Source: an uncultured bacterium
GTDB lineage: Bacteria; Oederibacteriota; PGYV01; CAWJRG01
Direction: 5' to 3'
DNA: 64,000 nucleotides
NCBI GenBank assembly: GCA_963845185.1
Contig: CAWJRG010000005.1
Location: 288,001 to 352,000 of the forward strand
The position numbers and the translations under genes are program-made. Shown one piece after another: positions 20,987 through 38,972 of the stretch (positions are counted from its first letter, which is position 1; each line of letters starts with the position of its first letter). Below the pieces are notes generated by a model that saw only the letters and a program-made list of their open reading frames with translations, did no database searches and was not told the DNA's origin.

Positions 20987-23341
20987 TTATTTCTTTACTT
21001 TTTCCGCATGCTGAATCTGGTTATATAAATTTACAAGCTGCGGATCGTTGCCAAAGACCTGCATTGCCTCTCTTAAAGTGTTTAAAGCCTTGTACGGTTG
21101 TCCTAGTTTAATATATGTTTGGGCTATATCAGTATAATTTACGGCACTTTTATCTGATTCCGATGCTTTCTGAAAGTACTTTAATGCTTCTTCAAAATTA
21201 TTGATTTTAAAATTACATATCCCCATATTTTTATATACTTCAACCGCGGCGTAATTCTGTTCAAGTAAAAATCCGAATAAATCGAGTGCTTTTAAATACC
21301 TGCCCGAAGCCATAAATGCTGCAGCCTGTCCGGATAGCGCTTTAAATTGTGAATAAGTATTTATTTCATCTATCTGATTTACATATTGTTGAAGCATGGC
21401 CTTATTATCACTGCCGTATTGTATTGCTTTTTCAAACATTTCTTTAGCCATAGGCCATAATCTTTCATTAAAATAAATTCCGCCCAATACCTCATATGCC
21501 TTATAATAATTTTCCTTTGCTCTAAAAGTCTCTTTTAAATATTTTATCTGGTTATCTTCGTCACTGATCGCTTTATAAGCCAAAAATAAATCATAATAAG
21601 TATAAGCCTTTGCTGAATTCCAGGGAAATAACAATGCGTATTTATAAGTTTCTATTGCTTCCTTGTATCTTTTTTCATCAAAAAAATCATATGCTTGATT
21701 TGTTAATTGTGCGCTGTACAGCGATATAAGAGCTTTGTCATAATCATCTTTGGCCGCGAATATCCCCCTGAATGCATAATTTTTAAATATCCCCGCCGGA
21801 ATGTGTTCGTTTTCGGCCGCAACCCTAAGCAACAGGCCTTTTGATTTTAGTTTAAAATTACCAATGTGATTTTTCATTTTTCCGGGAAAACCCTGTGAAA
21901 AATAAATGTTTTTTTCAGGAAAATACTTTCCGGTTATATTGCCTATATTGTCCATTACATTTAAATAACCCTGCTTAAGGGTAATTTGCCCGTATTTTTT
22001 TACAATGCTGTTGATTCCCCATTCATGTGAAAGATTATATATTGTCAGAATATTGATGTTGTCCGCTTTATGTTGCACTATCTGCCTGTAGCTGGCCGGC
22101 AGTGCATAATTGTCCCCGTAAGGTATGTAAAAACTCCCTGGTTCCATAGTCGCGGCCACATTATTTTCAAAATCGTAGGAAAGGTAATTAACGCTGCTAT
22201 TATTTATACTGAAATTCAAAAAACCGGCACATAATAAAATTACGATTGAAAGAGAGTAAAACGTATTTTTTAAAAATATCGCTTTTGCGTTTTTTGACAA
22301 TAAATGCATTCCGTTAATTAAAAAAATAAACAGTATATAGATGCTCGGCATTAGGAAGGTTCCCGTTGCCCATTTATATATTTCACCCAAACGCAAAGAA
22401 AATACAACTATGAATAAATTGGTTAAAAGCATACTGAGATAAAAAAATAGAATTTCCTTTTTCCTGCGCCAAAGCTCATAAATACCCAAAATTATGAATA
22501 TCCAGAATACATAAAAATCTTTTAGTAATAAAGTAATAATTTCTTCTATTTGATAATTATTAATGTCTAAATTTGGCAAAGTTTTATGTTCATAACCTGA
22601 TAAAAAAATTAGCCGGAGGAAATCGCCGATATTATCAGGCCTGTCAATAAAAACAAAAATATTCTCATTTTGTATTCTTAAAGGCAAAAAAGCGTATACG
22701 CTTAATCCCAATAATAATAATATTAAGGATATTATGAGATTTTTTACGGCTAATTTTTCCCGGTATTTATAAAAAATATATCCCAGGGCCGGAAAAAAAA
22801 TCAGCATACTCGGCCAATGGTTTGTCAATGAAAGTCCAAAAATATAAATTAACAGGTAAAAACGCCCGGTATTAAATGTGTAAAACAAATTAAAACTTAG
22901 GTATATTAATGCCGATAAAAACAATAAATTCAGTATGTATATCCCGCCTTTTGCCTCAATAGTTTGATTCCAAAACAAAAAGGAAAAAGCCATGACAAAA
23001 ACCCCAAAACAATTTATGATTTTGTTATTGTCGTTAAAAATAAAATAGATATTTTTTTTGATTATGAAATAAAAAAGCAGCAGGGCCATCAGGCCGAGAA
23101 ATATTGCAAATAAGTTTATTCTGAAAGCAGGCGAACCAACCGGCAATAAACTAAATATTTTAGCCGCCATTGTAAAAAGCGGGTATCCCGGAGGGTGGCT
23201 TATTCCGAGGGTATATGCAGATGTTATTGTTTCAGGCGAGTCGTCATTTTTAAATGTCGGAAATGTAGTATATAGATATATTTGAAATATCCCGGCTAAA
23301 GAAACTATTAGTATTATAATTTCTTTGTATTTTTTAATCAT
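20987..23341 (-). CDS. DUF2723 (TMEM260-like) GT-C glycosyltransferase with C-terminal TPRs, paralog
   Basis: Same motifs as 18314..20650. ATG 23341 (MIKKYKEII) aligns with MPKKYKDII of the paralog. Confidence 0.85.
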   Translation of the reverse strand: MIKKYKEIIILIVSLAGIFQIYLYTTFPTFKNDDSPETITSAYTLGISHPPGYPLFTMAAKIFSLLPVGSPAFRINLFAIFLGLMALLLFYFIIKKNIYFIFNDNNKIINCFGVFVMAFSFLFWNQTIEAKGGIYILNLLFLSALIYLSFNLFYTFNTGRFYLLIYIFGLSLTNHWPSMLIFFPALGYIFYKYREKLAVKNLIISLILLLLGLSVYAFLPLRIQNENIFVFIDRPDNIGDFLRLIFLSGYEHKTLPNLDINNYQIEEIITLLLKDFYVFWIFIILGIYELWRRKKEILFFYLSMLLTNLFIVVFSLRLGEIYKWATGTFLMPSIYILFIFLINGMHLLSKNAKAIFLKNTFYSLSIVILLCAGFLNFSINNSSVNYLSYDFENNVAATMEPGSFYIPYGDNYALPASYRQIVQHKADNINILTIYNLSHEWGINSIVKKYGQITLKQGYLNVMDNIGNITGKYFPEKNIYFSQGFPGKMKNHIGNFKLKSKGLLLRVAAENEHIPAGIFKNYAFRGIFAAKDDYDKALISLYSAQLTNQAYDFFDEKRYKEAIETYKYALLFPWNSAKAYTYYDLFLAYKAISDEDNQIKYLKETFRAKENYYKAYEVLGGIYFNERLWPMAKEMFEKAIQYGSDNKAMLQQYVNQIDEINTYSQFKALSGQAAAFMASGRYLKALDLFGFLLEQNYAAVEVYKNMGICNFKINNFEEALKYFQKASESDKSAVNYTDIAQTYIKLGQPYKALNTLREAMQVFGNDPQLVNLYNQIQHAEKVKK

Positions 23342-23355
23342 TTTCACCCTTTTAT

Positions 23356-23514
23356 GACAGCGTTTGTTTTATCAAGCCGTCATTATGGCAGTCAAATAGT
23401 CCTATGGACTATTTGACGGGTAGTTTCCATAAGCTATCATATAAAAACTACCCGACAAAACATTACGCTGTCTTATACCCGCTCAAGTCCGGATTCTATC
23501 CGGACAAGCGGTAT
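23356..23514 (-). ncRNA. Structured 5'-leader element, copy A (long form)
   Basis: P1 ATACC-GCTT-GTCCGGA/TCCGGAC-TTGAGCG-GGTAT; P2 GACAGCGT-AA-TGTTTTGTC...GATAAAACA-A-ACGCTGTC, just before the RBS. Confidence 0.65.
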
Positions 23515-23715
23515 TAATTCATTTAAATTGTTCGTGTTCGCTGCACCCCATCAATTTAACATCAAATAATGTTTTTTTCATTAAAAATTCATGGGATTAT
23601 TTGCTGCTGTTCTTACCCTTTTTACAAATACACGCCAGCCATCTCCGCAAAGTAACCTTTGGCTGCGGCTACCGGATGTCGTGTTTCTGCCTTATAACTG
23701 CCTGCCTGCACAACT

Positions 23716-23743
23716 AAAAAAGGCGGCTTTCGCCGCCTTTTTT
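23716..23743 (-). terminator. Intrinsic terminator after paralog 4
   Basis: AAAAAAGGCGGC-tttc-GCCGCCTTTTTT. Confidence 0.8.
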
Positions 23744-23775
23744 AGTGAAACTTTTACTTATTCGCTATCCCTTTA

Positions 23776-26700
23776 TCACTGCCCCGCTTGAATCACCGCG
23801 GACAGCTTCACTATTTTGGTCTTTTTGTTGCCCATATTATCCACGCCCTGCACGACGCATATATACGTTCCGCTCGATACTGTCTCTCCGCCTACGCTCT
23901 TAAAATCCCATGTTATGCTGGCAGCTGCAAGGTCGCCTATCAGTGTCCTTACCAGTTCACCTGCTATGTTGTATATTTTTATCTTTATTACGCCGCCAGC
24001 GTTTGGTTGCCATGTGAATTTAACAGGCGTTGACGTGTCGCCTATATACGGGTTGGGCAGCATTTTTATGGTCCCTAGCATGTCGGTGTTTCCTTCGTTC
24101 AATAAGGTGACCGCCTTGCTTATCCTTGAAGTTAAGCCCTGGTTTGTCTTTACCACAATCTGTATCTCATAAACCCCGCTCTGCACATAGTCTCCCAGCG
24201 AATTTTGCCCGTTCCATGTCAGCGGAGGATTTGCAGAATCATAATTAATTACTATCGGCGGCGCCCCCTTGCCTACCGGGAATACGTCGTTGCTGCCGTT
24301 AACGTTGCTCAGGTTGAGCGATACCTGGCTTGTGCCGTTATACGGTCCTGATATTGTCTGCACAAGCTCTCCCGCGCTGTTGAATATATTTACCTGCACA
24401 TACTGGGTCTCGCTGATAGTTGTTATCTGCTTTATTATTATATTGGTATGCCCGTACTGGTCTGTTGTAGTTTCCTTTATGTAATATACCCCGTCTGCCA
24501 CGGTCTGGCCCGCGCTGGTTGTCCCGTCCCACGAATACTGCGCGTATCCGTTTTTCTGCTGGTCAGGAGTCTCAAGTCCCGGAACCTTTATCGTAAGCAG
24601 CGTGCCTGAGCCGGGCGACATTACCCCTGTCGGGGTGTTGTTCAGGAGCAACTGCACATCCTGCGCTTCCTGCGACGTAGTAGTATTTACTATGGTTTTT
24701 ACAAGCTCTCCAGCCTCATTATATACGCTTATATTCATAACATACGGGAAAGGAACAGGCGTTATTGTTATTGTGGGCGACTGCGTACCGGTTTCCGTAA
24801 ATGTTATTGACGGAGTCATGGTGCTTGTCTGAGAGAATGTTACTGTAAGCGTATTTGTGTATGACACGGTTACGGTATATGTCGCTGTCGCGGATGCGGA
24901 AGCAGTCGAGGTCAATGTGCGCGTCAGCGTGTATGTGTATGTCGGCGTACTTGTTACTGTATAAGTGCGAGTGTCTGTGACCGTGTATGTAGGCGACAGC
25001 GTGTCTGTTACTGTCGGAGTCGGCGTCAGTGTCATTGTATCTGTCAATGTCGGAGTGTCGGTAACCGTGCATGTAGGCGTATCTGTATTGGTAATTGTGC
25101 GGGTCGATGTAAGCGTCAATGTCTCGGTGAATGTCGGCGTATTCGTGTAAGTGTATGTCGGCGACAGCGTATTGGTCACGGTCGGTGAGTCTGTTTGTGT
25201 GCTTGTTTCGGTAAATGTCGCGGTATCTGTGCGCGTGGGTGTAGATGTCATTGTATCGGTTTCTGTCGGTGTCACTGTCCATGTGTCTGACGGCGTTATT
25301 GTGTTTGACTGTGTTACCGTGTCCGTAAAAGTGCTTGTCACCGTGAATGTCGGCGTGCATGTAGCCGTATCGCTCGGCGACAATGTGTCCGTCACTGTCG
25401 GCGTGTTTGTAAATGTACTTGTCTCCGTGAATGTGGGTGTATATGTCTTAGTATTTGTAAGCGTGCTGGTTTCAGTTGACGTAGATGTAAATGTAGCTAT
25501 GAAAGGCGTACCAGTCACTGTGGGCGTGTCTGTCTGCGTAAATGTCGGTGTCCACGTAGACGTGTTTGTCGGCGTGCCTGTGGGCGTAAATGTCGGTGTC
25601 CACGTAGACGTGTTCGTCGGGGTTCCCGTGGGCGTAAACGTAGGAGAAGCTGTGACCGTGTCCGTCTGCGTATATGTCGATGTATACGTCCTGGTTGCCG
25701 TCAATGTCGGCGTTATTGTGGCCGAGAATATTATCTGTGTGAATGTCATTGTTATCGTGTATGTCAGCGTCAGCGTGCTTGTGTACGTGCTTGTCTGCGT
25801 GTATGTGGGAGACGGCGAAGTTGTGTCTGTATATGTTGCTGTTGCCGTCGGCGTAGGCGTCAGCGTGCTTGTCAGCGTTAATGTATATGTCGACGTATAA
25901 GTCCTGGTTATGGTGTATGTCGGCGTGAATGTTGCGGACAGTATAACAACCGTGAATGTCATTGTTATGGTGTATGTCTGCGTTATGGTGCTCGTTACCG
26001 TCTGTGTAATCGTGTATGTAGCTGTATTTGTGGATGTATATGTCATTGTCTGCGTATATGTGGGAGTCGGCGATGTCGTGTCTGTGTATGTCGATGTTGC
26101 CGTCGGCGTAGGCGTCTGCGTACTTGTCAGTGTTAATGTATATGTAGACGTATAAGTCCTGGTTATGGTGTATGTCGGCGTGAATGTTGCGGACAGTATA
26201 ACAACCGTGAATGTCATTGTTATGGTGTATGTCTGCGTTATGGTGCTCGTTACCGTCTGTGTAATCGTGTATGTGGCTGTATTTGTGGACGTATATGTGA
26301 CTGTCTGCGTGTATGTGGGAGTCGGCGATGCTGTATTTGTGTATGTCGGCGTCGCAGTAGGTGTAGATGTTTTTGTATCAGTCGGTGTTATTGTATAAGT
26401 CGAGGTTAGCGTAGGCGTTGCCGTGAATGTCGGAGTAATGGTGGCCGAGAATATTATTGTCGTGAATGTCATTGTTATGGTATATGTCGGCGTTATCGTG
26501 GCTGTCACTGTCGGCGTCACTGTCATTGTGTCTGTATATGTGGATGTATATGTCACAGTACGCGTATAAGTGGGCGTCGGCGATGCTGTATCTGTGTATG
26601 TAGGCGTTGCCGTCGGCGTATACGTCAGAGTGTACGTCAGCGTTATTGTATCTGTTGGAGTATCTGTCCTGGTTATAGTATATGTAGGCGTAAATGTAGC

Positions 26701-29700
26701 CGATAATATCACAATAGTGAATGTCATTGTTATCGTATATGTTGGCGTTATTGTAGATGTGTCAGTAGGCGTCACTGTAACAGTATTCGTGTACGTGGAT
26801 GTGTATGTCACCGTGCGCGTGTATGTTGGAGTCGGCGATGCCGTATTTGTATATGTCGGTGTCGCCGTAGGCGTGTCGGTCAGCGTGAATGTGGGCGTGA
26901 ATGTCCTGGTAAATGTCACTGACACCGTGATTGTAAGGGTTGAAGTGAAAGTCGGCGTCGCTGTTACAGTATCGGTGAATGTGGATGTATATGTAACTGT
27001 CTGAGTGTAAGTAGGGGTTGGCGATGCTGTAATTGTATATGTAGGAGTATTCGTAGGCGTCGATGTTTTTGTATCCGTCAATGTCACGGTATATGTAGGG
27101 GTATTTGTAGGTGTTATAGTAAATGTCGGCGTATATGTCGCGGACAGTATCACAATCGTGAATGTCATTGTTATCGTGTATGTAGGCGTTATTGTGGGCG
27201 TTGCTGTAGGTGTATAAGTCTTTGTGTCCGTGTTTGTGTATGTATATGTCACTGTATTAGTGTACGTGGGCGTCGGCGATGCCGTGTTTGTAAATGTAGG
27301 TGTAGCCGTAGGCGTATAAGTCAGCGTGAATGTAGGCGTATATGTCTTTGTAAAAGTCACTGACACTGTGATTGTCACCGTATCAGTGTACGTCGGCGTC
27401 GCTGTAACTGTAATAGTGTATGTGTATGTATATGTCACTGTCTGCGTGTATGTGGGCGTAGGCGATGCTGTATTTGTAAATGTCGGCGTATTTGTCGGCG
27501 TATAAGTCCGGGTGAATGTCGGCGTAAATGTATATGTATATGTCGGCGAAAGCGTGTTTGTGAATGTCGGCGTAGGTGTTGCCGTATTCGTAGATGTGTA
27601 TGTCGGCGTATATGTCCTGGTAAATGTCACGGTATTTGTATATGTCGATGTCAAAGTCACTGTAATAGTGTATGTGTATGTATATGTCACGGTCTGCGTG
27701 TATGTGGGCGTCGGTGTTGTAGTGTTTGTGAATGTAAGCGTCGCCGTGGGCGTATCAGTCAGTGTATAAGTAGGCGTATAAGTCCTGGTATATGTAACGG
27801 ACACTGTAATTGTAACGGTATAAGTGTATGTCGGCGTAGGGGTTATGGTTATAGTATCCGTGTATGTGTATGTAACTGTGCGCGTGTATGTCGGCGTAGG
27901 CGTAGTTGTGTCTGTAAACGTAGACGTCGGCGTAGGCGTGTCGGTAAGCGTGTATGTAGGCGTATCTGTCTTGCTGACTGTCTGGGTCACTGTATTTGTC
28001 ACGGTCAGAGTATAAGTCGGCGTCGGAGTAACTGTAATAGTGTCTGTGAATGTATATGTAACTGTCACCGTGTACGTATATGTCGGCGTATATGTCTTTG
28101 TATATGTAGGCGTAGGCGTGAATGTAAATGTAGGCGTGCTTGTATCTGTGTATGTCGGCGACAGCGTGTTTGTAAGTGTATATGTGTATGTCGGTGTGTC
28201 ACTCCTGGTGTATGTCGGAGTGGGCGTCATTGTGTATGTCGGCGACAGAGTGTTTGTGAGTGTGGGAGTCGAAGTATATGTAACTGTTTTCGTAAATGTG
28301 TATGTCGGTGTTATTGTGAAAGTCGGCGACGAGCACTGGTCTGACAGAAGCACCGTGGATACAGGCGATGGCAGGCCGTTCCATCCGAGCGAAACGTTAT
28401 TGTGCCAGTTGCATGTGTTGTTTGACTGGGCATTGTCAAGGGCCATTACCCACGTAAAGCATCCAGTAAACCCTGTGGGTGTCGGCACCAACACAAATGT
28501 GGTCCAATATTGGCTCGGGGAGCCAACGCTGGCTGTCAGGGAATATATACCATTGCCTGCCGGTTGTATGTTATACGGGGTATTATACTGCCACTGGTCT
28601 CCCGGAGAGCTCGACCAGTCGTCATAAACAGTAAAATTCTGCATTATCGCGCCGCTGTTGTTGCATACCACAATGGTAAATGACAGCTGGTCTGTTTTTA
28701 CTATATTTGTGGTTTTGCTGGATGTTTTGGATATTGTAAATGCAGGAGTGGATGTTGGCGTGACCGTGGGTGTCGGCGATATGCAATTTACGTTAAATAC
28801 AACCGGGTTTGAGTATACTGTCGCAGGACCGCCTGCCCCCGTGCCTGATATGCCTGCCGTGTTTGTAAAGCTCTGGTTGCAGGCTGATGTCGATGCCCAC
28901 CACGTATATGACCCGCTCTGGTCGCTGATATTGCCGAGGCTCCAGTTTAACATACTGCCTGACAATGTCCCGGCCGGGTTTGAACTCTGGTATGTCAATC
29001 CAGTGGGTATTGTGTCAAACAATACAGTGTTTGCCGAAACCCTGGTGTTGTAAGTCATAAAATTATTGTATGAATCCTGCGTTGTGCCGTCCTGGTCATT
29101 TCCCTGCTCGCCCACGCCCGGCCTCCAGTCAGAGTTTGTTCCGCCGTGGTCAGGGCATTCCCAGTTTGTATTTGACTGGTCAGCGGCAGGCGCGGTCCAA
29201 TTTAGCTGAAATGCTGTTGGCTCTGCTGTGCCCACCTGCCATATCTTTGCCGCAAAAGTAAATCCGTTTCCGCTTATTTGTATTTTTACCCTGTACCATG
29301 TATTGCCTGTTATTACAAGTGTTGCAGGGTCAACATAAGTTGGCCATGAGCATGTCCCGCCTCCGCATTCCTGTACTCCCACATACCCGCCCGCAGGCGC
29401 TGTATCAATCGACAGCAGCAAAGAATATGCGTAACCGGCGTTTCCTGTCAGCCCGTTGCTTCGCATTACTATTAAGGCGTCAGATCCGGAATAAGAGCCC
29501 GGATTTATCATTACATCTGATTCTATGATTCCTGAGTCGCACATTTGTGCGTTTGCCTCGTTGGCAGGGTCGTCTAAAAGCAAGTCAGGATAAACCGATG
29601 TCCCGGTTACGCTGCCTGTCATTATCCTGTCTCCTGTGTTACAGGCGTCGCTTATTGTCCAAGTGCCGTTCTGGTTGTTTTGCGGCAGGAACTTCCATCC

Positions 29701-30831
29701 GCTCGGAGCAGTAGTGCTTGATGACCCGTTTGCATCGTCGTCAAACATCCTTATTTCCTTAAGCACGTCTCCGTTTATCTGATAATTAAGGTAATATGTT
29801 ATTGTCACTGACGCGCTCGGCAGTTTCAGGAATGAATTAATGCTTTCTGATTTTTGCAGGGACAGGGCAACTGTGCCCACTGTGAGGTTCGCCGTGGAGT
29901 TGGATGTTGCCGAACCGTTTGTACCTGTGACAGTGTTCGTTATAACTGTGCCTGTTGCTATTGCGCATGTCATCTGCAGCAGGATCCAGACCGTACCTGA
30001 CTTGGTGTAGGTCGTGCTCGGCATAGTCCATGACACTGTGCCTGAAGTTGAGCCAAGCGCAGGTGCGGTTACCGAACCCGTGCTTGGCGCTGGGTTCGGG
30101 CCGTAATCAACAAGCGCGAGGCAACCTCCACCGGGTATCGGGTCTGTTATTGTGGCAGCGCCGTTGCCGTATGTGTAATCAACAGAATAAAGGACTTTGT
30201 CTCCTACAAGCGCGAGCGTGCCCTGCACATTCTTATGCACGGTTACTGACTGCGCCGGCGTCGGAAGAGACCAGTTTAAGGAAGTAATATCGCATGCTGC
30301 CATGCCCTGGCCCCAGTTCTGCATATTATTATTTTCATAAGCAGCATAAAGGTATAAGGTTGATGCACCGCACCCGGATGCTCCCATATCAGTAGCCTGC
30401 GGCATTGTAAGCGTATACTGGACTGATACCGTTTCACCGCTTGTCGAGCCGCCGCATTCTGTGCAGTTCGGCGTAAAAGGGCTTGGAATGGAAACAGGCA
30501 GGCCCATCTGGCAGTTGTTCGGGCAAGGGTTCGCAGAATGCACATCGACGCCAAGCACGCTTACCAGGAATACCTGGCCGCCTGTGTTTTCAACCTGCGG
30601 CGTATTATGCGTGCTTACAGCTATGGCAAAGTCTCCGGCATTATACTGGTCAACGCAGTATGTGGCATAAACATTGAACTGCTGTCCCCATCCGGGGTTT
30701 GTGGGATTCATGGTCAATGAAACCATTCCGTCGGCTTTTATTATGGAAGGAATCAATAGAATTGATAAAATTATAAGGCACAAAGTGCCGCTTTTGAATG
30801 CTTTAGGCGTTTTACTCAATAACTTTTTCAT
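23776..30831 (-). CDS. Giant Thr-X-repeat secreted surface protein, paralog 4 (type A, about 2351 aa)
   Basis: Start moved to ATG 30831 ([13 protein letters not shown], aligning with [13 protein letters not shown] of paralog 2; AGGCGG upstream); same architecture as the other paralogs. Confidence 0.92.
25951..26740. repeat. 255-bp (85-aa) coding tandem repeat
   Basis: (c/a)gtgaatgtcattgttat occurs at 25951, 26206, 26461 and 26716. Confidence 0.8.
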
Positions 30832-30877
30832 CTTTAATCTCCGCCTTTTAAATCTCTTTTCCTTTGTTGACCTAATT

Positions 30878-30905
30878 TTAGACAACAATAACTGTCAAAA
30901 GTTTC
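30878..30905 (-). promoter_or_regulatory. ECF-sigma-type promoter GAAAC-N17-GTCTAA
   Basis: ttagac 30878-30883, 17 nt, gtttc 30901-30905. Confidence 0.75.
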
Positions 30906-30962
30906 GCTAAAAATCAAATAATCTGTTCTACCCACTAAAATTACTTTCTATTAAGTGTAGTA

Positions 30963-30991
30963 ATTATACATAAAATATTGATTTACGTCAA
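30963..30991 (-). promoter_or_regulatory. Sigma70-type promoter TTGACG-N17-TATAAT
   Basis: Homologous to 12076-12104. Confidence 0.65.
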
Positions 30992-31080
30992 GTTTTTTAT
31001 AGATAAAATGATATGAATTTGAAGAGGTTTTGTCTATACATGCGTAGAAACAGAATTTTGTTCCATTTTTGTGTAAATAA

Positions 31081-31109
31081 AAAGAGGCGGGCAAACAATC
31101 CCGCCTCTT
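31081..31109 (-). terminator. Intrinsic terminator after htrA
   Basis: AAGAGGCGGG...CCCGCCTCTT hairpin. Confidence 0.7.
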
Positions 31110-31153
31110 CTCTATATGATGATACTATAATATTTAGATTTCTTTACCGGCTT

Positions 31154-32539
31154 TTATTTCACCGTAAACGCCAGGTATATCATGGCATTGCCGCGTTCAA
31201 TCAGTACGACCACATCCCTGCCTCTTTCTGTTTTGCCCTTTGTTGCCTTTTCAAAATCATCCGTATTTTTTATTTCAACGCCGTTGATTTCATGTATGAC
31301 ATCGCCTTTCATTACTCCCGCCTCGTCCGCCACAGAATTATCCGCAACGTCTATAACAACAACGCCTATTTTTGCGGTAATGCCGTATTGCTGCGCTATG
31401 TCCGGAGTTATGTCATTTACCGTCATGCCGAAAGTTTCCGCCCCTTCTTTTTGCGCCGGCTGCTCCATTGCCTCGGTCCCCTCGGGTTTCTTTTCGCCGA
31501 CTTTGACTGAAATGTCTTTTTCATCGCCGTTCCTGACTATTTTTATTTTCGCCTCGGTTCCCACGTCTGTGTCTGCTATCATTCCCTGCAGTTCCCTGTA
31601 GGATGCGACTTTTTTTCCTTCATATTCTGTAATCACGTCGCCCCTTTTCAGGCCTGCCTTGTCCGCAGGGGTCCCTTTAAATACCTGCGCTATCAGGACT
31701 CCTTCTTTTACCTTGAAGTGTTTTGCCAGTTCAGGCGTAATTTCCTGTATACCCACGCCGAGCCATCCCCTTACAACCTTGCCTTGTTTTATGATGTCCG
31801 TGTAGATTTTTTTCGCCATGTTTACCGGTATTGCGAATCCCACGCCTTCATACCCGCCTGTGTTTGAGGCTATGGCGGAATTTATGCCGACGACTTCTCC
31901 GTTCAGGTTAATAAGCGGCCCGCCCGAGTTGCCCGGGTTAATGGCAGCGTCTGTCTGCAAAAAATTATCATACGGCCCTGCTCCTATTATCCTGCCTTTG
32001 GCGCTTATTATCCCGTGCGTCACGGTTTGCTCCAGGCCGAAAGGGCTGCCGACCGCCAGTACCCAGTCGCCGACGCTTAGCGCATCCGAATCCCCGAGAG
32101 GCAAAGCAATTAAATCCGGCGCTTCAATTTTAATTATGGCTACATCTGTTTCCTTGTCGGTCCCTATGACCTTTGCCTTGTATTCTTTTGTATTATAGAG
32201 TTTCACTGTTATCTCGTCAGCCTTTTCCACCACATGGTTGTTTGTGAGTATGTAACCCCTTTTGTCCACTATAAACCCGCTGCCGAGCGAAGTCCTTTTG
32301 AAAGAACCGTGCGGAACCCCGAAAAACCTCTCAAAAAAATCGTCGTTGAAAAAAGGGTCGTAATAAGGGTCCTGGCTTTGTTTTATCACCCTCACTGTCG
32401 AAATGTTCACGACAGCCGGCTTAACTTTTTCCGCGATTTCCGCGAAGCTCGCCGGTATGTACTTTACAGCGGCATTCGCATTCATGGCGAGCAGTATGCC
32501 CATTGCGGAAATTAAAAATAATTTGATTTTTGTTTTCAT
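31154..32539 (-). CDS. htrA: DegP/DegQ-family serine protease with two PDZ domains
   Basis: Signal peptide, SLGSGFI, TNNHVV, QTDAAINPGNSGGPL, two PDZ domains. Confidence 0.95.
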   Translation of the reverse strand: MKTKIKLFLISAMGILLAMNANAAVKYIPASFAEIAEKVKPAVVNISTVRVIKQSQDPYYDPFFNDDFFERFFGVPHGSFKRTSLGSGFIVDKRGYILTNNHVVEKADEITVKLYNTKEYKAKVIGTDKETDVAIIKIEAPDLIALPLGDSDALSVGDWVLAVGSPFGLEQTVTHGIISAKGRIIGAGPYDNFLQTDAAINPGNSGGPLINLNGEVVGINSAIASNTGGYEGVGFAIPVNMAKKIYTDIIKQGKVVRGWLGVGIQEITPELAKHFKVKEGVLIAQVFKGTPADKAGLKRGDVITEYEGKKVASYRELQGMIADTDVGTEAKIKIVRNGDEKDISVKVGEKKPEGTEAMEQPAQKEGAETFGMTVNDITPDIAQQYGITAKIGVVVIDVADNSVADEAGVMKGDVIHEINGVEIKNTDDFEKATKGKTERGRDVVVLIERGNAMIYLAFTVK

Positions 32540-32552
32540 GTTTGCCTCCTTA

Positions 32553-32652
32553 GCAAGAGTTTATTTTTGCAAGCCGTCAACAGGCGCAGCAAAAATATTA
32601 CTCTTGTTTACACCCGCTCCAGTCCGAGGCTATTGCCGAGGACAAGGGGTGT
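32553..32652 (-). ncRNA. Structured 5'-leader element, copy B (short form)
   Basis: ACACC..GTCC..GGAC-TGGAGCG-GGTGT, then ACAAGAGT-AA-TATTTTTGC..GCAAAAATA-A-ACTCTTGC, then TAAGGAGG and the htrA ATG. Confidence 0.7.
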
Positions 32653-32683
32653 TAGCATCTTTGCAGTGATTTATTTCATATTA

Positions 32684-32712
32684 TTAGACGTCTTTGATAT
32701 ATCAAATGTTTC
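32684..32712 (-). promoter_or_regulatory. ECF-sigma-type promoter variant GAAAC-N18-GTCTAA upstream of htrA
   Basis: TGAAAC...CGTCTAA; spacer is 1 nt longer than in the other copies. Confidence 0.55.
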
Positions 32713-32737
32713 ATACTTTATTAAAAAGCCCCCAGGC

Positions 32738-34156
32738 TTATTTTACCTTTGGCGTTGGTACCGGCTGTTGCTTTTCCGGAAAATCAGGCAGGTTGAAATT
32801 CTTAAGAGCGCCGGTATCCACGGAAAAAATCAAGCTTCTTTCCAGGACCTTTATGTAATATTCCTCTTTATTTTCGGCTTTTTTGCCAAGCAACACCGTG
32901 CCTATGTAAGCGTCTTTTTCACCCCACATTTTCAAAAACGGCGCCTTGGCGTCTATACCGTACAACTTTTCTTCCTGATCCGGGCTTAATTTGCCTTCTA
33001 TCTTTGTTTTATAATTGCACCAGTACAAACCTGCCAGCACGCTTGTAATATTAACTTTTGTTTTATCCACGTTTTTGGCTTCCTTTATTTCCCACGCAAA
33101 ATTATTTTTCCCTTTTTCCACGTTAGTTGCCCGTATCTCGATATCCCTGTATTTTATCTCCACCCTCTTTACCTTATCCTGCATGAATATAACGACCTGT
33201 TTGTTGACAAGCTGCCATATATCCGGTATCCCATTATAGCCGTATATGGGTATTTCCATTACCTGGTCCATGGTGTCGCTTTTTACATAAACGGTATTAT
33301 CCTTCTTGTCCTGCAGCCCGAAATATATGGTTTTCTTGGCATTGCCTTCGTAAAAAGATATGTGTTCCGGCGGATTGTCAAGCCCGTATTTTTTTAAATT
33401 TGCAGGAGTTTCCGGCTCCATTTTTTTTGCCTTGGCTCCTTTTAGACTGTTGTATACATCCCTGATTGTTTCGATTTTACCTATGTCGTTAACCGCTCCT
33501 ATTACTTTCCACGAATCAGGCTCTTCTTTGTCATTCAGCCTGACGAGGGTATACTCCTTATTTTTAAGCTTTACTTCAATTTTTGCGGTCTTACTCGTGT
33601 CAACCCTTATGGGCGTCTTATCCCTGTAATCAAAAAGCGTCTTCTCACAGTATGTTCTTAAGTTGTGGTCCAAAAGATAAACAACCTTGGGGTTCTCCGG
33701 CTTCATGGCGTACACAAGCGTTTTGCTCGGATTGTAAGCCCCGATATTTAATTTAAAATCTTTTTTGTCCTTTGTGATTATTTCCGTGGTGGCAAAAGGC
33801 GTATTCAGGTCAAAATCAGCCAGGTCCTGCGGCGTGAAATTGTCTATTGTCCTGTCCGCTATTGTGCCCGGATATTTGGCCAGTACTCCGCTTACTCCCA
33901 CTTCGTCGGTGTATGCCTTTATCGGTTCGTCAACCATCATGTCGTTGCCGACTTTTTTAAGCACTATCCTGCTTTTTGTGTCCCTGTTTGTAACTATCAG
34001 GGATGTAATATCATCCTGTTTTAACCCGTAAAAAAGCATTTCGTCCTGCATTTTTATGTCATAGTCTTTTTTCTTTTTTACAACGTCAACAAAATAAAAA
34101 TATCCGCCGAGAATTACAAGCACGCCGAGCGCGATCAGTATTTGTTTGCCTTTCAT
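32738..34156 (-). CDS. DUF4340-like membrane-anchored protein
   Basis: N-terminal TM helix, repeated DFDL/KYGLDNP modules, usual position after GldG-type ABC genes. Confidence 0.7.
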   Translation of the reverse strand: MKGKQILIALGVLVILGGYFYFVDVVKKKKDYDIKMQDEMLFYGLKQDDITSLIVTNRDTKSRIVLKKVGNDMMVDEPIKAYTDEVGVSGVLAKYPGTIADRTIDNFTPQDLADFDLNTPFATTEIITKDKKDFKLNIGAYNPSKTLVYAMKPENPKVVYLLDHNLRTYCEKTLFDYRDKTPIRVDTSKTAKIEVKLKNKEYTLVRLNDKEEPDSWKVIGAVNDIGKIETIRDVYNSLKGAKAKKMEPETPANLKKYGLDNPPEHISFYEGNAKKTIYFGLQDKKDNTVYVKSDTMDQVMEIPIYGYNGIPDIWQLVNKQVVIFMQDKVKRVEIKYRDIEIRATNVEKGKNNFAWEIKEAKNVDKTKVNITSVLAGLYWCNYKTKIEGKLSPDQEEKLYGIDAKAPFLKMWGEKDAYIGTVLLGKKAENKEEYYIKVLERSLIFSVDTGALKNFNLPDFPEKQQPVPTPKVK

Positions 34157-34167
34157 AATTTCCTCCT

Positions 34168-34333
34168 AAGAGTCCGTTGATTTTGCCGAGCGTCAACAGG
34201 CAGTCAAATAGTCCTGTGGACTATTTGACGGGTAGTTTCCATAAGTCATCTAATATAAAAACTACCCAGCAAAATCTTACGGAGTCTTGCACCTGTTCCA
34301 GTCCGAGGCCGTCAGGCCGAGGACAAGTGGTGC
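34168..34333 (-). ncRNA. Structured 5'-leader element, copy C (long form)
   Basis: GCACC..GTCC..GGAC-TGGAACA-GGTGC; AAGA.TCCGT-AA-GATTTTGC..GCAAAATC-A-ACGGA.TCTT, then AGGAGG. Confidence 0.7.
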
Positions 34334-34385
34334 GTTTTTATTTTTAATGTTTAATTATTCAACACTCAGCACCCAACACTCAAAT

Positions 34386-35958
34386 CTACTTTCCCGTCCT
34401 TCTCCTTATCAATACCATTACCCCTATCGCAAGTACAAGCAGCGGGAAAAATATGGTAGGCAGTATAAAAAGCATCCTGCCCTGTATTTTGGATATAAAA
34501 AGCGGTTCAAATGACCTGTCTTTTGGCCTTATTGCTATAGTATCCTTTTCCTCGGCTAGAAAGCCGACTGTGTTCAGGAATAAGTCCCTGTTGCCTGCCA
34601 CTGCAAAATATGTGTTGTTTGGGAACTCGGAACTGCCGAACACTGCAATGCCCGCTTTTGATGAATTTGTGGCTGAATCCCAGTCCGGTTTGAATAACGT
34701 GTTGTCTATGCTCGCAACAGCCGCAACTTCAAGCGGCCCTTTTTTGTTCTTGCCCGCGTTGTTGCTGACATAACCTTTCTTGATTCCCGCAAGGTCTGTT
34801 TCCCCCCAGGCAGCCGGGTTTGTCTTGGCCAGCCCCTGCAGGGTTACACCCGGTACGCCGCCTTTCAAATCAAAAGACCTGCATATGGGCAGAAGCGTCG
34901 CAACCGTGAATCCTTTTGTAATTTCATGCTGCTCGTACTGAGAATATCAGGGGCATGAGCACGTCCCCGCCGAGCATCTTGCTTATTTTATCCACTATTA
35001 CGTCGTTATCCGCGTAAATGCCGAAGGTTCTGAGCACCGCCTCCAGCTTTGGCGCGCGGGAAAAAGCCGGGTAAAGCAGGAAAACTTTGCCGCCGTGCCT
35101 TAAGTAATCCTCAATGTATTTTATTTCGTTATCAAACAGGTCCGTCTGCGGACCATCTATAATCAGCTCGTTGGCGTCATCCGGCACTTTTCCGGCATTG
35201 AAAAGTTCTATTTCCTGCGCCGCGTAATTTTCAGAGGTCATTTCGTCCTTTACAAGCGAATACGCGGCTTTGTCTGTAGGAGGGTTTTCAACGCTCGGCT
35301 CGCCGTGCCCTTTTGTAAAATAAATTTTCTTTTTTGTTTCCCTTGTCAGCCTCAAAATGCCGTTTATCAGCGTTTCTTCAGTCGGGTCGTCTATACGCTC
35401 CTGTGTTTTATTGTCCTTGCGGCTTATGACAACCACGCCGTACCTCGTCACGTTAAAAGCTTTCGCGAGGCCTGGCTGCCTGTCGGTATCCACGCTTTGG
35501 AATTTCACGTGCGGCGTGACTTTTTCAAACTGGTGCAGGTCATCCTCAATCCTGGCGTCCCTTTGCTTAACCGAGTAGAAATAATAAATTTCAACATCGG
35601 TTTTCAGGCCGCTTAAAATTTTATGCGACTGTTCGGAAAGCGTGTATTTTTTGTTTTTGGTAAGGTCAACCTGCAGGGTATGCACGGTAAATATCGCCTG
35701 CTCAATGCCTATTATCGCTATGACTATCAGCGAATATATCAGGGCGTTGGCACCGTACCTTGTCGTGCGGCTTGTGAAAAGCGTTTTCACCGTTTTGCGG
35801 TTTTGCCACATATAAAATCCGCTCATGACCGCCCCGAGCGCTATCATTATTATGGTTGCCACCTCAAACTCGGACCTTACAATTGCGATCAGGCTGCCTG
35901 CCAGCAGCAAAACAATTCCACCTATAAATATTGCCTGCATGAGTTTTTCGTTTTTCAT
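34386..35958 (-). pseudogene. GldG-like ABC transporter auxiliary protein, split by a 1-bp insertion at about 34943 (may be an assembly error)
   Basis: DLTKNKKYTLS, KIYFTKGHGE and GNRDLFLN motifs; removing one T from ATATTCTCAG restores ...PLISQYEQHEITKGF...DLKGGV. Confidence 0.8.
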
Positions 35959-35959
35959 G

Positions 35960-36733
35960 TTAGCCCCTCCACTGTTTTGATTCAAGGACCCGCAATGAAA
36001 GGAACAAAAAGAGCGCGGTAAAATTCAGGTAATAAATCAGGTCCGATGTGTCTATCATGCCCTTGGAAAAGGAACCAAGGTGCTCTATTATCGAAAGGTT
36101 TGTCAATATTTTCTGCCCTATGGGCCCGAGAGAACCTGCCTGCCATGAAATAACCCAGAATAAAAGCAGCAGCCCGAAACTTGCAACCGCGGCCACTATC
36201 TGGCTTTCCGTTAAAGTTGATATAAAAATCCCAAGCATTATAAACGCGCTGCCTACCAGTATCAGCCCGAGAAACCCGCAAAGCAGAGGAAGCAGTTCAA
36301 AATCCCCGGCGAACCTTAAGATAATAAAAGAAAGTCCTCCTCCCACAATCATGATAAGCAGAATCGTAAGTGCCGATAAAAATTTCGCCATCACTATGGC
36401 AAAATCGCTGACGGGATACGTAAATAAAAGCTCGGACGTGCCTTCCCTTTTTTCCTCGGCAAAAACCCTCATGGTAATTATCGGAACCATGAGAAGCAGT
36501 ATCACGGCCATGTTCTGGAAGTACGGCCTGAATACGCCGTCAATCATGGACAGTTCCGCGCCCCTGTAATACGACTGCATGCTGCGCATGGACATCATGG
36601 AATAATAGTTTATTATGCTTGTGAAAAAATAGCCGCTTAAGACCATGTAAACCACAATTATGGTATACGCTATCGGAAGGGCAAAAAATATTTTTAACTC
36701 CTTCTTGTACAGAGCCAAAAATTTCTGGTCCAT
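35960..36733 (-). CDS. ABC-2 type permease, GldF-like
   Basis: KKELKIFF..PIAY, ITMRVFAEEKREGTSELLFTYP, about 6 TM helices. Confidence 0.88.
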   Translation of the reverse strand: MDQKFLALYKKELKIFFALPIAYTIIVVYMVLSGYFFTSIINYYSMMSMRSMQSYYRGAELSMIDGVFRPYFQNMAVILLLMVPIITMRVFAEEKREGTSELLFTYPVSDFAIVMAKFLSALTILLIMIVGGGLSFIILRFAGDFELLPLLCGFLGLILVGSAFIMLGIFISTLTESQIVAAVASFGLLLLFWVISWQAGSLGPIGQKILTNLSIIEHLGSFSKGMIDTSDLIYYLNFTALFLFLSLRVLESKQWRG

Positions 36734-36734
36734 C

Positions 36735-37676
36735 TCACATTACCTCCTTCGTTACTAGTTTAAGGAAGACTTCTTCCAGGGTTAAATCCACTTTTTTGAG
36801 TTCCAGCAGCCCCCAGTCTTTCTTCACTATCTTGTTTACAACTTCTTTTCTTAAATCAGCGCCTTCTTCAGTATCTATATTATAAGCGTATGCGCCTTCC
36901 TCTATTTTTTCTGCCTCCGTGACTTTTGTCACTCCGCGTATTTTTTCAATTTCCTGCTCAAATTGGGCCTTTGGCGCTTCGACCTGCACGTATATCCTGC
37001 CCGATTTCTGGAAAGTCTTTGTTAAATTCTCAACCTTGTCCTGCGCCACGATTTTGCCTTCGTTTATTACCACCACCCTGTCGCATGTCATGTTTACCTC
37101 GGGCAGTATGTGAGTGGAAAGTATTATCGTACGCTCGCCCTTCATGTTTTTTATCAGGTTCCTTATTTCCTTTATCTGCTTCGGGTCAAGCCCTACGGTT
37201 GGTTCGTCAAGTATCAGCACTTCAGGGTCGTTAAGGATTGCCTGCGCCAGACCTACCCTCTGCCTGTAACCTTTTGACAGCTTTCCTATTATCATATTCC
37301 TGACTTCGGCAGCGCCTGCTTCCTCCATCGCCTTATTAATCCTGGCTTCGATTTTATCTTTGGGTACGCCTTTTATTTCAGCGATGAACTGCAGGTATTC
37401 ATGTACCTGTAACTCCTTGTAAAGCGGTACATTTTCAGGCATGTACCCGATTTTTTCTTTCGCGTGTACCGGGTCGCTGACAACGTCAATGCCTGCCACT
37501 TTCACCTTGCCTTCGGTAGGGGGGAAAAAACCGGTGATTACCCTCATGGTTGTGGTTTTGCCTGCTCCGTTCGGTCCCAAAAAACCGACTATTTCTCCTT
37601 TTTGAACCTCAAAGGAGACACCGTCGACCGCCACTTTTTGCCCGAACCTCTTCGTAACGTTTGTGAGTTCAATCAT
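36735..37676 (-). CDS. ABC transporter ATP-binding protein, GldA-like
   Basis: [28 protein letters not shown]. Confidence 0.93.
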
Positions 37677-37688
37677 ATCTGCCTCCTA

Positions 37689-37789
37689 GCAAGAGTTTAT
37701 TTTGCAAACTGTCAACAGGTGCAGCAAAATATTACTCTTGCTTGCACCCGTTCAAGTCCCAGGCTCCAAGAGCCTGGGACTAGTGGTGC
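37689..37789 (-). ncRNA. Structured 5'-leader element, copy D (short form)
   Basis: GCACC..GTCCCAGGCTC/GAGCCTGGGAC-TTGAACG-GGTGC; GCAAGAGT-AA-TATTTTGC..GCAAAATA-A-ACTCTTGC, then TAGGAGG. Confidence 0.7.
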
Positions 37790-37814
37790 TATTTAATATT
37801 CTGTTTATTAACAA

Positions 37815-38972
37815 TCAGCTGATAATATTCACTCTAACATAAAAATCCCCGTATTTGCCGGTTTTTATGTTTCTCGCTCCCTTGCCTTTTATTTTTAGCA
37901 GCGCGCCGGGCTTTATTCCGGCAGGGACTTTAACGAGCAGCTTCTCGTCATGGTGCGGTGCTGTTACTTTAATCTTCCCGCCGGATCTCGCGATGTCTTC
38001 CTTGATTTTTATCGCGCAGTATATGTCGTCGCCCTGCCTTTTGTATTTCCCGCTTTCTCCGACTTTAAATATCACGTATAAATCACCGCGTATGTCCTGA
38101 TGCGGTTTATTATGCCCCTGCTCTTTTATTTTTATTTTTGTGCCTTCGGCTACGCCCTCAGGGATTTTTATTTTTATTTTTTTGATTTCCTCAATCGCGC
38201 CCGAGCCGCCGCACTTTGTGCACGGTTTTGACGAAAGCGTGCCCTTGCCTCCGCATCGCGGGCATGTCTTATTTATAATAAATCCGCCCTGCGAAAACTG
38301 TATTGTGCCCCTTCCTCCGCATGTCTGGCAAACGCTCACTTTCGCGCCTGCCTCGACTCCAGAGCCCTCGCATGCAGTGCAGGTCTCCATACGCGGTACT
38401 TTCACTATTGCCTCGCCGCCGGTTAACGCTAGCTCAAAAGGTATATTCAGGCGCACCGTAACGTCACCGCTTTCCTGGTCGTCCTGCTCCACATCTTCAT
38501 CTTCAAAGCCCGAATAACTTCTTCTTGCGTTGGCCGTTCCATTGCCGAAGAACATGTCAAAAACATCTCCAAACCCGCCAAAATTGGCGGATTGCCCCTG
38601 CCTCGCGCCCCTACCAGAGAACAAATCGCCCAGTATGTCCGAGAGGTCAAACTGCGCTCCGCCGCCTCCGGAAGAAAAACCCTGCCAGCCTGCGCCGCCC
38701 TGCCCGCTGCCTGGCCTAAAATTTGAAAAATCATATCCTCTTGACTCGGCGTCGCGTAACTGCTCGTATTTCCATTTTTTATCTTTATCCGTCAGGACTT
38801 CGTATGCTTCGTTTATTTCCTTGAATTTTTCCTCTGCCTGCTTGTTCCCGGGATTCAGGTCAGGGTGGTATTTTTTCGCAAGCTTCCTGTATGCAGACTT
38901 AATATCATTTTCTGTGGCGCCTTTGGCTACGCCCAGTATATTATAGTAATCTTTTACGGGCACGTTAATCAC
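37815..38972 (-). CDS. dnaJ: Chaperone DnaJ
   Basis: J domain with HPD, G/F-rich region, four CxxCxGxG motifs. Confidence 0.93.

Follow-up and report, generated by a model that had tools for sequence, protein, structure and literature searches.

A two-hairpin, gene-less repeat placed before Shine-Dalgarno sequences in an uncultured Oederibacteriota bacterium

Four copies of a structured element of about 100 nt were analysed in a stretch of 64,000 nt (called the window) from an uncultured bacterium of the phylum Oederibacteriota (assembly GCA_963845185.1, contig CAWJRG010000005.1, positions 288,001 to 352,000). Each copy consists of a P1 hairpin, a 3-nt linker and a P2 hairpin, described here on the minus strand, and each points into a gene. 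The element belongs to a probably mobile repeat family which in this genome ends, at most loci, a fixed few nucleotides before a Shine-Dalgarno (SD) sequence. The copies and their downstream genes, the latter assigned with Pfam, are the following:

20987..23341, minus strand: gene downstream of copy 1, TMEM260-like (DUF2723) with TPR
23356..23514, minus strand: copy 1 (P1 at 23475-23514, then P2 with a nested module)
23391..23453, minus strand: nested two-hairpin module M of copy 1 (63-65 nt), inserted in the P2 upper stem
31154..32539, minus strand: gene downstream of copy 2, htrA (trypsin and two PDZ domains)
32553..32652, minus strand: copy 2 (simple P1 at 32610-32652 and P2; SD GGAGG at 32545-32549)
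32738..34156, minus strand: gene downstream of copy 3, DUF4340
34168..34333, minus strand: copy 3 (P1 at 34289-34333, then P2 containing a nested module; SD at 34162-34166)
34203..34267, minus strand: nested module M of copy 3
36735..37676, minus strand: gene downstream of copy 4, ABC transporter ATPase
37689..37789, minus strand: copy 4 (simple P1 at 37744-37789 and P2; SD at 37682-37686)

A preliminary description had placed four copies at these positions, in sense orientation to DUF2723, htrA, DUF4340 and ABC ATPase genes and within a few nt of the ribosome binding site. Coordinates, orientation and gene assignments were all borne out. The short distance to the ribosome binding site applies to copies 2-4, which are followed by GGAGG at 2-3 nt, but not to copy 1, whose 3' end is followed by 6 nt and the weak SD-like GGGTG (23345-23349) ahead of the start codon at 23341, with no strong SD. 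The nested 63-65-nt module in P2 of copies 1 and 3 was absent from that description. Copy 4 begins about 25 nt past the dnaJ stop codon and is probably inside an operon. A paralog of the gene downstream of copy 1 (18314-20650) has no element upstream. The window at 4924-30888 encodes several very large proteins with C-terminal FlgD-Ig domains according to Pfam, alternating with DUF2723/TPR genes.

The P1 consensus is RYACC-N-CT-Y-GTCC, a variable hairpin and GGAC-TKGA-N-C-G-GGTRY, whereas P2 is composed of an 8-bp lower stem, a GTAA/AAC internal loop, a T-rich upper stem and a small apical hairpin. On the mRNA strand copies 2 and 4 fold with z scores of -6.3 and -7.7 relative to shuffled sequences (0/200 shuffles as good); the fold of the opposite strand is equally strong (-7.8 and -7.6). 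The proposed covariation of P1 and P2 was confirmed in an alignment of 32 sequences: 90.7% of the cells were paired compared with 72.2% after shuffling, none of 500 shuffles reached the observed score, 21 of the 31 pairs change on both sides, and slid controls scored far lower. Relatedness among the sequences is not accounted for by the shuffle, and the same 32 sequences served to derive the structure; an alignment of 45 hits from relatives agrees on the structure but was itself fitted to the model. Among 117 units, 51 distinct P2 lower stems were found. Loop bases are fixed in both P1 and P2, and the GTAA/AAC loop, which had been called invariant, is present in 115 of 126 parsed units; the apical TGAC, given the same status, is not invariant. 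The first linker base covaries with the base preceding P1 (Fisher p 6e-9) and with the third base past P2 (1.5e-9) in 111 units that are not independent, so that both ends of the element can pair with the same linker, which may be a feature of the junction. No known RNA family matched: Rfam 15 reported only four tRNAs over the window, the best match touching a copy within 32400-37900 scored 18.7 bits against a threshold of 100 with nothing near threshold, and none of the copies matched at gathering or E-value thresholds. Resemblances to hairpin and twister-sister ribozymes, attC sites and HEARO ends failed a comparison by eye.

The element is far more frequent than the four copies first described. 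Profiles built from pattern matches gave 157 P1 and 163 P2 matches in the genome and none in the reversed genome, which merged into 165 loci; the covariance model matched 145 of 150 scored among 1245 candidates. Based on our own gene calls (2771 genes, approximate), none of the 165 loci lies inside a gene; 141 are in sense orientation in gaps between co-directional genes, 14 occupy divergent gaps, 6 are antisense and 4 convergent, and 155 of all loci aim into the downstream gene. Since 9 of the 11 loci on a contig's minority strand still aim into the next gene, polarity tracks genes and not replication. At the 135 loci with a parsable P2, the SD core begins 2-4 nt past the P2 lower stem in 106 cases (background 8.3%) and at exactly 3 nt in 79; it begins at 5-7 nt in 9 cases, and within 14 nt it is absent in 20. 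A start codon follows 7-20 nt further on at 106 of the 115 SD-bearing loci. An upstream gene is 30 nt away or less at 33 of the 141 co-directional loci, indicating that many copies are inside operons. The 100 downstream proteins encoded within 32 nt and read by eye, under names that are in part presumptive, have no common pathway, which argues against a riboswitch; there are ribosomal and ATP synthase proteins among them, others concerned with the cell wall or amino acids, lipoproteins, and proteins of unknown function. The element carries no ATG, and no fixed -10 (a built-in promoter at constant distance) was found in 118 flanks of this genome. One tandem array (G000 C9 916438-917176, G000 being this genome) contains seven head-to-tail units with a period of 100 bp and no spacers.

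Comparison with close relatives indicated that the repeat is mobile, being gained, lost, duplicated and swapped between sites. A metagenome scan yielded 58 loci; among the matches listed, two were chance matches and four of the sister-family type described below. Thirty-four loci of congeners were mapped to orthologous sites in this genome, of which 13 were filled according to our catalogue and 21 were not; among the latter, as far as listed, L192 is in truth filled and L212, L215, L223 and L230 hold remnants. Empty sites retain SD and start. The cleanest pairs of filled and empty sites are L183 and L196, in which the SD and its spacer are the same as in the empty site and the bases 5' of the SD are replaced; here the SD belongs to the host. 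At L189 (atpD, 91%) the element, itself ending in AG, is placed after the AG of a host AGGAGG, and at L193, L232 and L233 it is found between a common promoter-like sequence and the SD. In the reverse direction, 15 loci of this genome were mapped to congeners and two proved truly empty, one being the site of copy 3 in the window (congener locus L207, where the gene is 88% identical). The P2 subfamily differs between the copies at two orthologous sites, and an inverted P2 lies within the junction in 10 cases. On the P2 side the boundary is exact, while the 5' side is variable and takes the place of host bases; P2-only copies are present, and tandem duplicates often take in the upstream flank. 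Median nearest-neighbour similarity is 0.86 (0.95 or more in 5 of 111 units) and P1 and P2 types combine almost freely, which points to an old, recombining family and not to a recent burst. Terminal inverted repeats were not apparent in 111 units (at most 6 of 12 terminal bases match), and the match between the ends, examined as a possible target-site duplication, averaged 2.2 nt compared with 1.7 nt after permutation (0/2000), which is largely explained by linker pairing; at L189 an AG stands on either side of the element. A circular rod-shaped intermediate was considered, as some tandem junctions form a near-perfect helix, and was not adopted because other tandem junctions contain 10-35 nt of flank. 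Both hairpins tolerate large insertions. Module M gave 44 pattern matches and 75 profile rows, self-reverse matches included. It consists of a GTAG...CTAC hairpin and a second palindrome, occurs at about 55 loci genome-wide, and sits at many P1/P2 positions and in other hairpin repeats.

Conservation was assessed in 13 orthologous pairs of copies, which are 86% identical (1076/1254) compared with 54% at four-fold sites (481/893) and 70% in the 30-nt flanks. Three orthologs, with 93-96% identity where silent sites reach about 60%, are the best match among 166 loci, and their loops are conserved along with the stems; the ortholog of copy 2 in a congener is identical at 96 of 100 positions.

The covariance model matched 12 of the 24 genomes of the order and, with 39 candidates scored per genome, none of 75 other genomes sampled from the phylum. 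A pattern scan of a genome collection gave at least 68 loci; among the matches listed 11 were true elements and the rest chance P1-like sequences, and the named records in which true copies occur bear the label candidate division FCPU426 or unclassified. The preliminary description had proposed to examine the genome and its relatives for orientation and position bias: a strict sense bias with SD adjacency holds in this genome, but gene 3' ends are the site in a sister family (f10). Of this family 27 loci were examined, covering most of 39 matches. Twenty-four of them face a convergent gene end and 22 abut a GC-rich terminator-like hairpin as judged by reading; at four of them the element extends over the stop codon of fabG, and a real SD adjoins none of the 27. 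The fabG copies are antisense within an operon, and such a copy is also found in the genome of another family and is absent from this genome. The GTAA/AAC loop is mostly a 1x1 A.A mismatch in the sister family. In the f10 flanks the A-runs before the hairpins are generally longer than the T-runs after them, as expected of host terminators. One locus (L131) has a terminator-like hairpin and no convergent gene. Hence one structure occurs in two polarities, and P2 always adjoins a purine-rich stretch. Among further genomes, G001 has SD-type positions at two of three loci, and a copy in G008 has its start at the 3' end of a tRNA, on the opposite strand. Copies beside tRNA-Leu 3' ends were seen at L115 and L128 of G008, and next to one of the two the tRNA 3' end is repeated. 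At L018 and L053, just past the element, the 3' end of an intron that we take to be group IIC-like separates a terminator position from the element on the opposite strand; the genome with these two loci yielded no reverse transcriptase (RT).

The enzymes that could mobilise such a repeat were searched for in this genome and its relatives. The Pfam model Y1_Tnp had no match in this genome, and the NCBIfam RAYT model detected two RAYT-like HUH genes below its cut-off (G000 C1 234014-234571 and C5 416743-417438), both of which have a different GTAG hairpin within or beside them and lie 8 and 17 kb from the nearest element. An insertion sequence (IS) with palindromic ends is inserted into these RAYT-associated GTAG hairpins at about 15 places. 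Model R1 of the element had no match (E<=1) near 30 Y1 loci from relatives, 5 IS110 loci and 5 RT loci, and Y1 presence does not follow the element (7/12 carriers, 8/12 non-carriers). TnpB was not found. An autonomous partner with the same ends was not detected by the Y1, TnpB and near-locus searches in draft genomes, which often drop IS copies. RT genes were detected in 2 of the 24 genomes; the 11 other carriers showed none. IS110 is found in five genomes, the three with most copies of the element among them yet also one without it, and was rejected as mobiliser since its ends and targets look unrelated by eye. An IS110-family element with a long 3' non-coding end is common to this genome and G014 (L001, L244, L248 and L250; 67-83% protein identity). 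An RRXRR search carries no weight as no control genome gave a match, GIY-YIG and DUF559 genes are present, and two matches in viral contigs both lacked the structure. A group II intron with RT lies at G000 C9 699.9-701.9 kb, with five more near-identical copies (L006-L010, L243); its inspected ends follow directly after ATGA at gene starts, and two of its sites also have the two-hairpin element just upstream.

We tentatively prefer, with confidence a little short of even, the reading that the element is a gene-less, REP2-like mobile repeat of about 100 nt that belongs to one order, lands before host SD sequences and is probably kept as a stabilising or insulating leader. The repeat might be copied through a folded single strand, with its P2 end pairing with or recombining into a short purine-rich target, namely the SD in this genome and the A-run opposite the terminator U-tract in the sister family. 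As such a target resembles the donor's own flank, each lineage would repeat the donor's kind of site. A role as stabiliser or insulator of the downstream message is suggested by the predicted folds. The mean unpaired probability of the SD core is 0.58-0.66 in 89 folded units, and ensemble averages contained no alternative fold that pairs the SD. Decay of the downstream cistron that depends on the 5' end would be blocked by a pair of stable hairpins lying immediately 5' of the SD, as follows from the general behaviour of RNase E/G, and a folded leader would stop upstream RNA from pairing with the SD and so keep it open; we infer that the element may be retained at many sites because of this dual protection. 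An RNase E/G-family gene is present in the genome, and the RNase J model gave a match below cut-off. A precedent is the bcr3 repeat of Bacillus cereus, described as correlating with longer mRNA half-life (PMC3446304).

Several observations weigh against this reading. No mobiliser of the element was found in the searches for Y1/HUH, TnpB, IS110 and RT enzymes. Most f10 copies are located past terminators and outside host mRNA, so a leader role cannot be ancestral. The evidence on the active strand is split: the mRNA strand is favoured by a U.G pair that is nearly constant in P1, whereas G.U and A.C are equally frequent in core stems (54 versus 57 with the two outermost P1 pairs excluded, 60 versus 110 with these counted), TC/TC mismatches in 47 of 155 P1 hairpins correspond to tandem GA on the opposite strand, and RNA folding energy is lower on that strand in 76 of 111 units. 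The SD spacers of filled and empty sites differ at L189, L207 and L233, suggesting that the SD may at times be brought in or reshaped by the element. Identity between random paralogs already reaches 73%, and in 15 orthologous pairs the ortholog ranked best in 3, within the top ten in 9 and at 62 or worse in 4, a non-orthologous copy being the best match in 12; homogenisation between copies therefore accounts for part of the conservation. Taken together with the high identity of orthologs, these ranks indicate that some copies were held in place and others replaced or converted. A local function of the conserved copies appears plausible, with support from sequence comparison that is moderate and not decisive.

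It is possible, though unlikely, that the repeat is a selfish single-stranded DNA element of the repetitive extragenic palindrome (REP)/bacterial interspersed mosaic element (BIME) or IS200/IS605-end kind, the opposite strand of which is read by a HUH transposase, with no host function and with conservation due to gene conversion and hairpin-templated repair. Transposases of this kind are described as reading imperfect hairpins with fixed bulges (PMC8266576), and the lack of a G.U excess on the mRNA strand, the tandem GA on the other, the tandem and mosaic arrays, the predominance of non-orthologous best matches and the presence of two RAYT-like genes and other hairpin repeats in the genome would fit. 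However, a GTAG/GGAG guide precedes P1 in 1 of 124 and P2 in 0 of 135 cases on the other strand, inverted REP pairs are missing, the RAYT-like genes belong with the unrelated GTAG hairpin, the Y1 loci have no element nearby and do not track it, polarity tracks genes and not the lagging strand, and loops are conserved as well as stems at the three best orthologous sites. A route through RNA, in which element RNA would be reverse-transcribed at the target from a primer formed by pairing with the donor's post-P2 flank, in the manner of a short interspersed nuclear element, could explain the precise P2 end with its variable, host-replacing 5' side, the P2-only copies and the flank carried along by tandem duplicates, and the genome does hold six group II intron RT copies inserting at gene starts; given the rarity of RT among carriers and the absence of a clear target-site duplication, we regard it as very improbable.

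The remaining alternatives assign the element a role as RNA. A protein-binding motif, acting as a stand-alone small RNA (decoy) in the sister family and here as the SD-side translational regulon of one RNA-binding protein, is in our view improbable. It would account for the fixed loop bases, for the constant 3-nt SD spacing, for the hairpin of L131, for T-runs on the element's strand in most f10 abutting hairpins and for the 11 of 26 f10 flanks that have a -10-like hexamer 1 or 4 nt ahead of P1 (about 1.7 expected, the flanks being related); it is opposed by targets without a common pathway, by the turnover of sites between congeners, by the host-terminator pattern of A- and T-runs, by the antisense fabG copies and by the absence of a protein candidate among our results. 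A ligand-sensing riboswitch or self-cleaving ribozyme would likewise be in line with the covariation, the fixed loops and the SD adjacency, yet it hardly appears probable at all in view of the negative Rfam result, the unrelated genes, the ensemble averages, the insertions accepted by both hairpins and the antisense orientation in the sister family. The same unrelated genes, a mostly open SD, shifting sites and antisense copies speak against the dedicated cis-regulatory or riboswitch-like RNA of the preliminary description. The spread agrees better with that description's own alternative of a mobile, non-autonomous repeat, although not as a random-orientation MITE (miniature inverted-repeat transposable element) or REP. 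A bolder variant is quite unlikely: a structured RNA of old standing in the whole order, transcribed by itself in one family, would have turned into a self-spreading translation-start module in another, finding SDs by pairing via its own linker and bringing over 100 unrelated genes under a single RNA structure, perhaps also under a single RNA-binding protein.

The preferred reading, a mobile repeat probably kept as a leader, can be compared with known systems. In the literature consulted we found no description of the element, although motif tables in the supplements of comparative RNA screens could hold it. The analysis adds the empty site of copy 3, the tests of ortholog conservation and rank, the covariation of the linker, the divided evidence on the strand and the f10 polarity count. 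Should base pairing set the landing rule, the element would offer a compact targeting mechanism, and a leader that stabilises messages would make it a portable expression part; failing both, it is a lineage marker and one more unexplained repeat. Introns of the group IIB1 lineage target start codons. The terminator-targeting group IIC introns are mobile and land at expression signals (PMC8643678); unlike group II introns, the element has no ribozyme domains or open reading frame, is about 100 nt long and lies before the SD and not in the start codon. The bcr repeats of Bacillus cereus are similarly transcribed intergenic repeats in untranslated regions and operons, but the account of bcr1-3 presents them as MITE-like and, in the parts relevant here, mentions no fixed SD spacing (PMC3446304). 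IS200/IS605 ends and their gene-less derivatives share two unlike hairpins, the lack of terminal inverted repeats and of a clear duplication, and a site preference beside a short motif (PMC6006769). In contrast to these, the element has no constant target tetranucleotide (SD here, A-run or stop codon in relatives), no replication-linked polarity and no TnpA/TnpB linked to its ends. REP, BIME and REPIN sequences with RAYT (TnpA-REP) are high-copy extragenic imperfect hairpins with fixed bulges, tandem or mosaic arrays and lineage restriction (PMC8266576), whereas the element lacks a GTAG/GGAG guide and a flanked RAYT, keeps a strict gene polarity and combines two different hairpins in direct order instead of inverted pairs. 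The closest likeness, by description and not by sequence, is to Neisseria REP2 (CREN) and the Borrelia plasmid repeats IR-A/IR-B, dispersed intergenic repeats of 100-180 bp with two internal stem-loops and no terminal inverted repeats, in sense orientation directly upstream of genes, whose spreading route is described as not established (PMC3184786). REP2 differs in having its own promoter, ribosome binding site and ATG in about 25 copies (PMC3184786), whereas the element has no ATG and no fixed -10, stops before the host SD, is present at 165 loci with compensatory subfamilies and reverses its polarity in the sister family. Its fixed 3-nt landing before the SD here and opposite-strand landing at terminators in the sister family form a natural test of target choice and domestication in repeats, with a bearing on REP2, REP and BIME alike.

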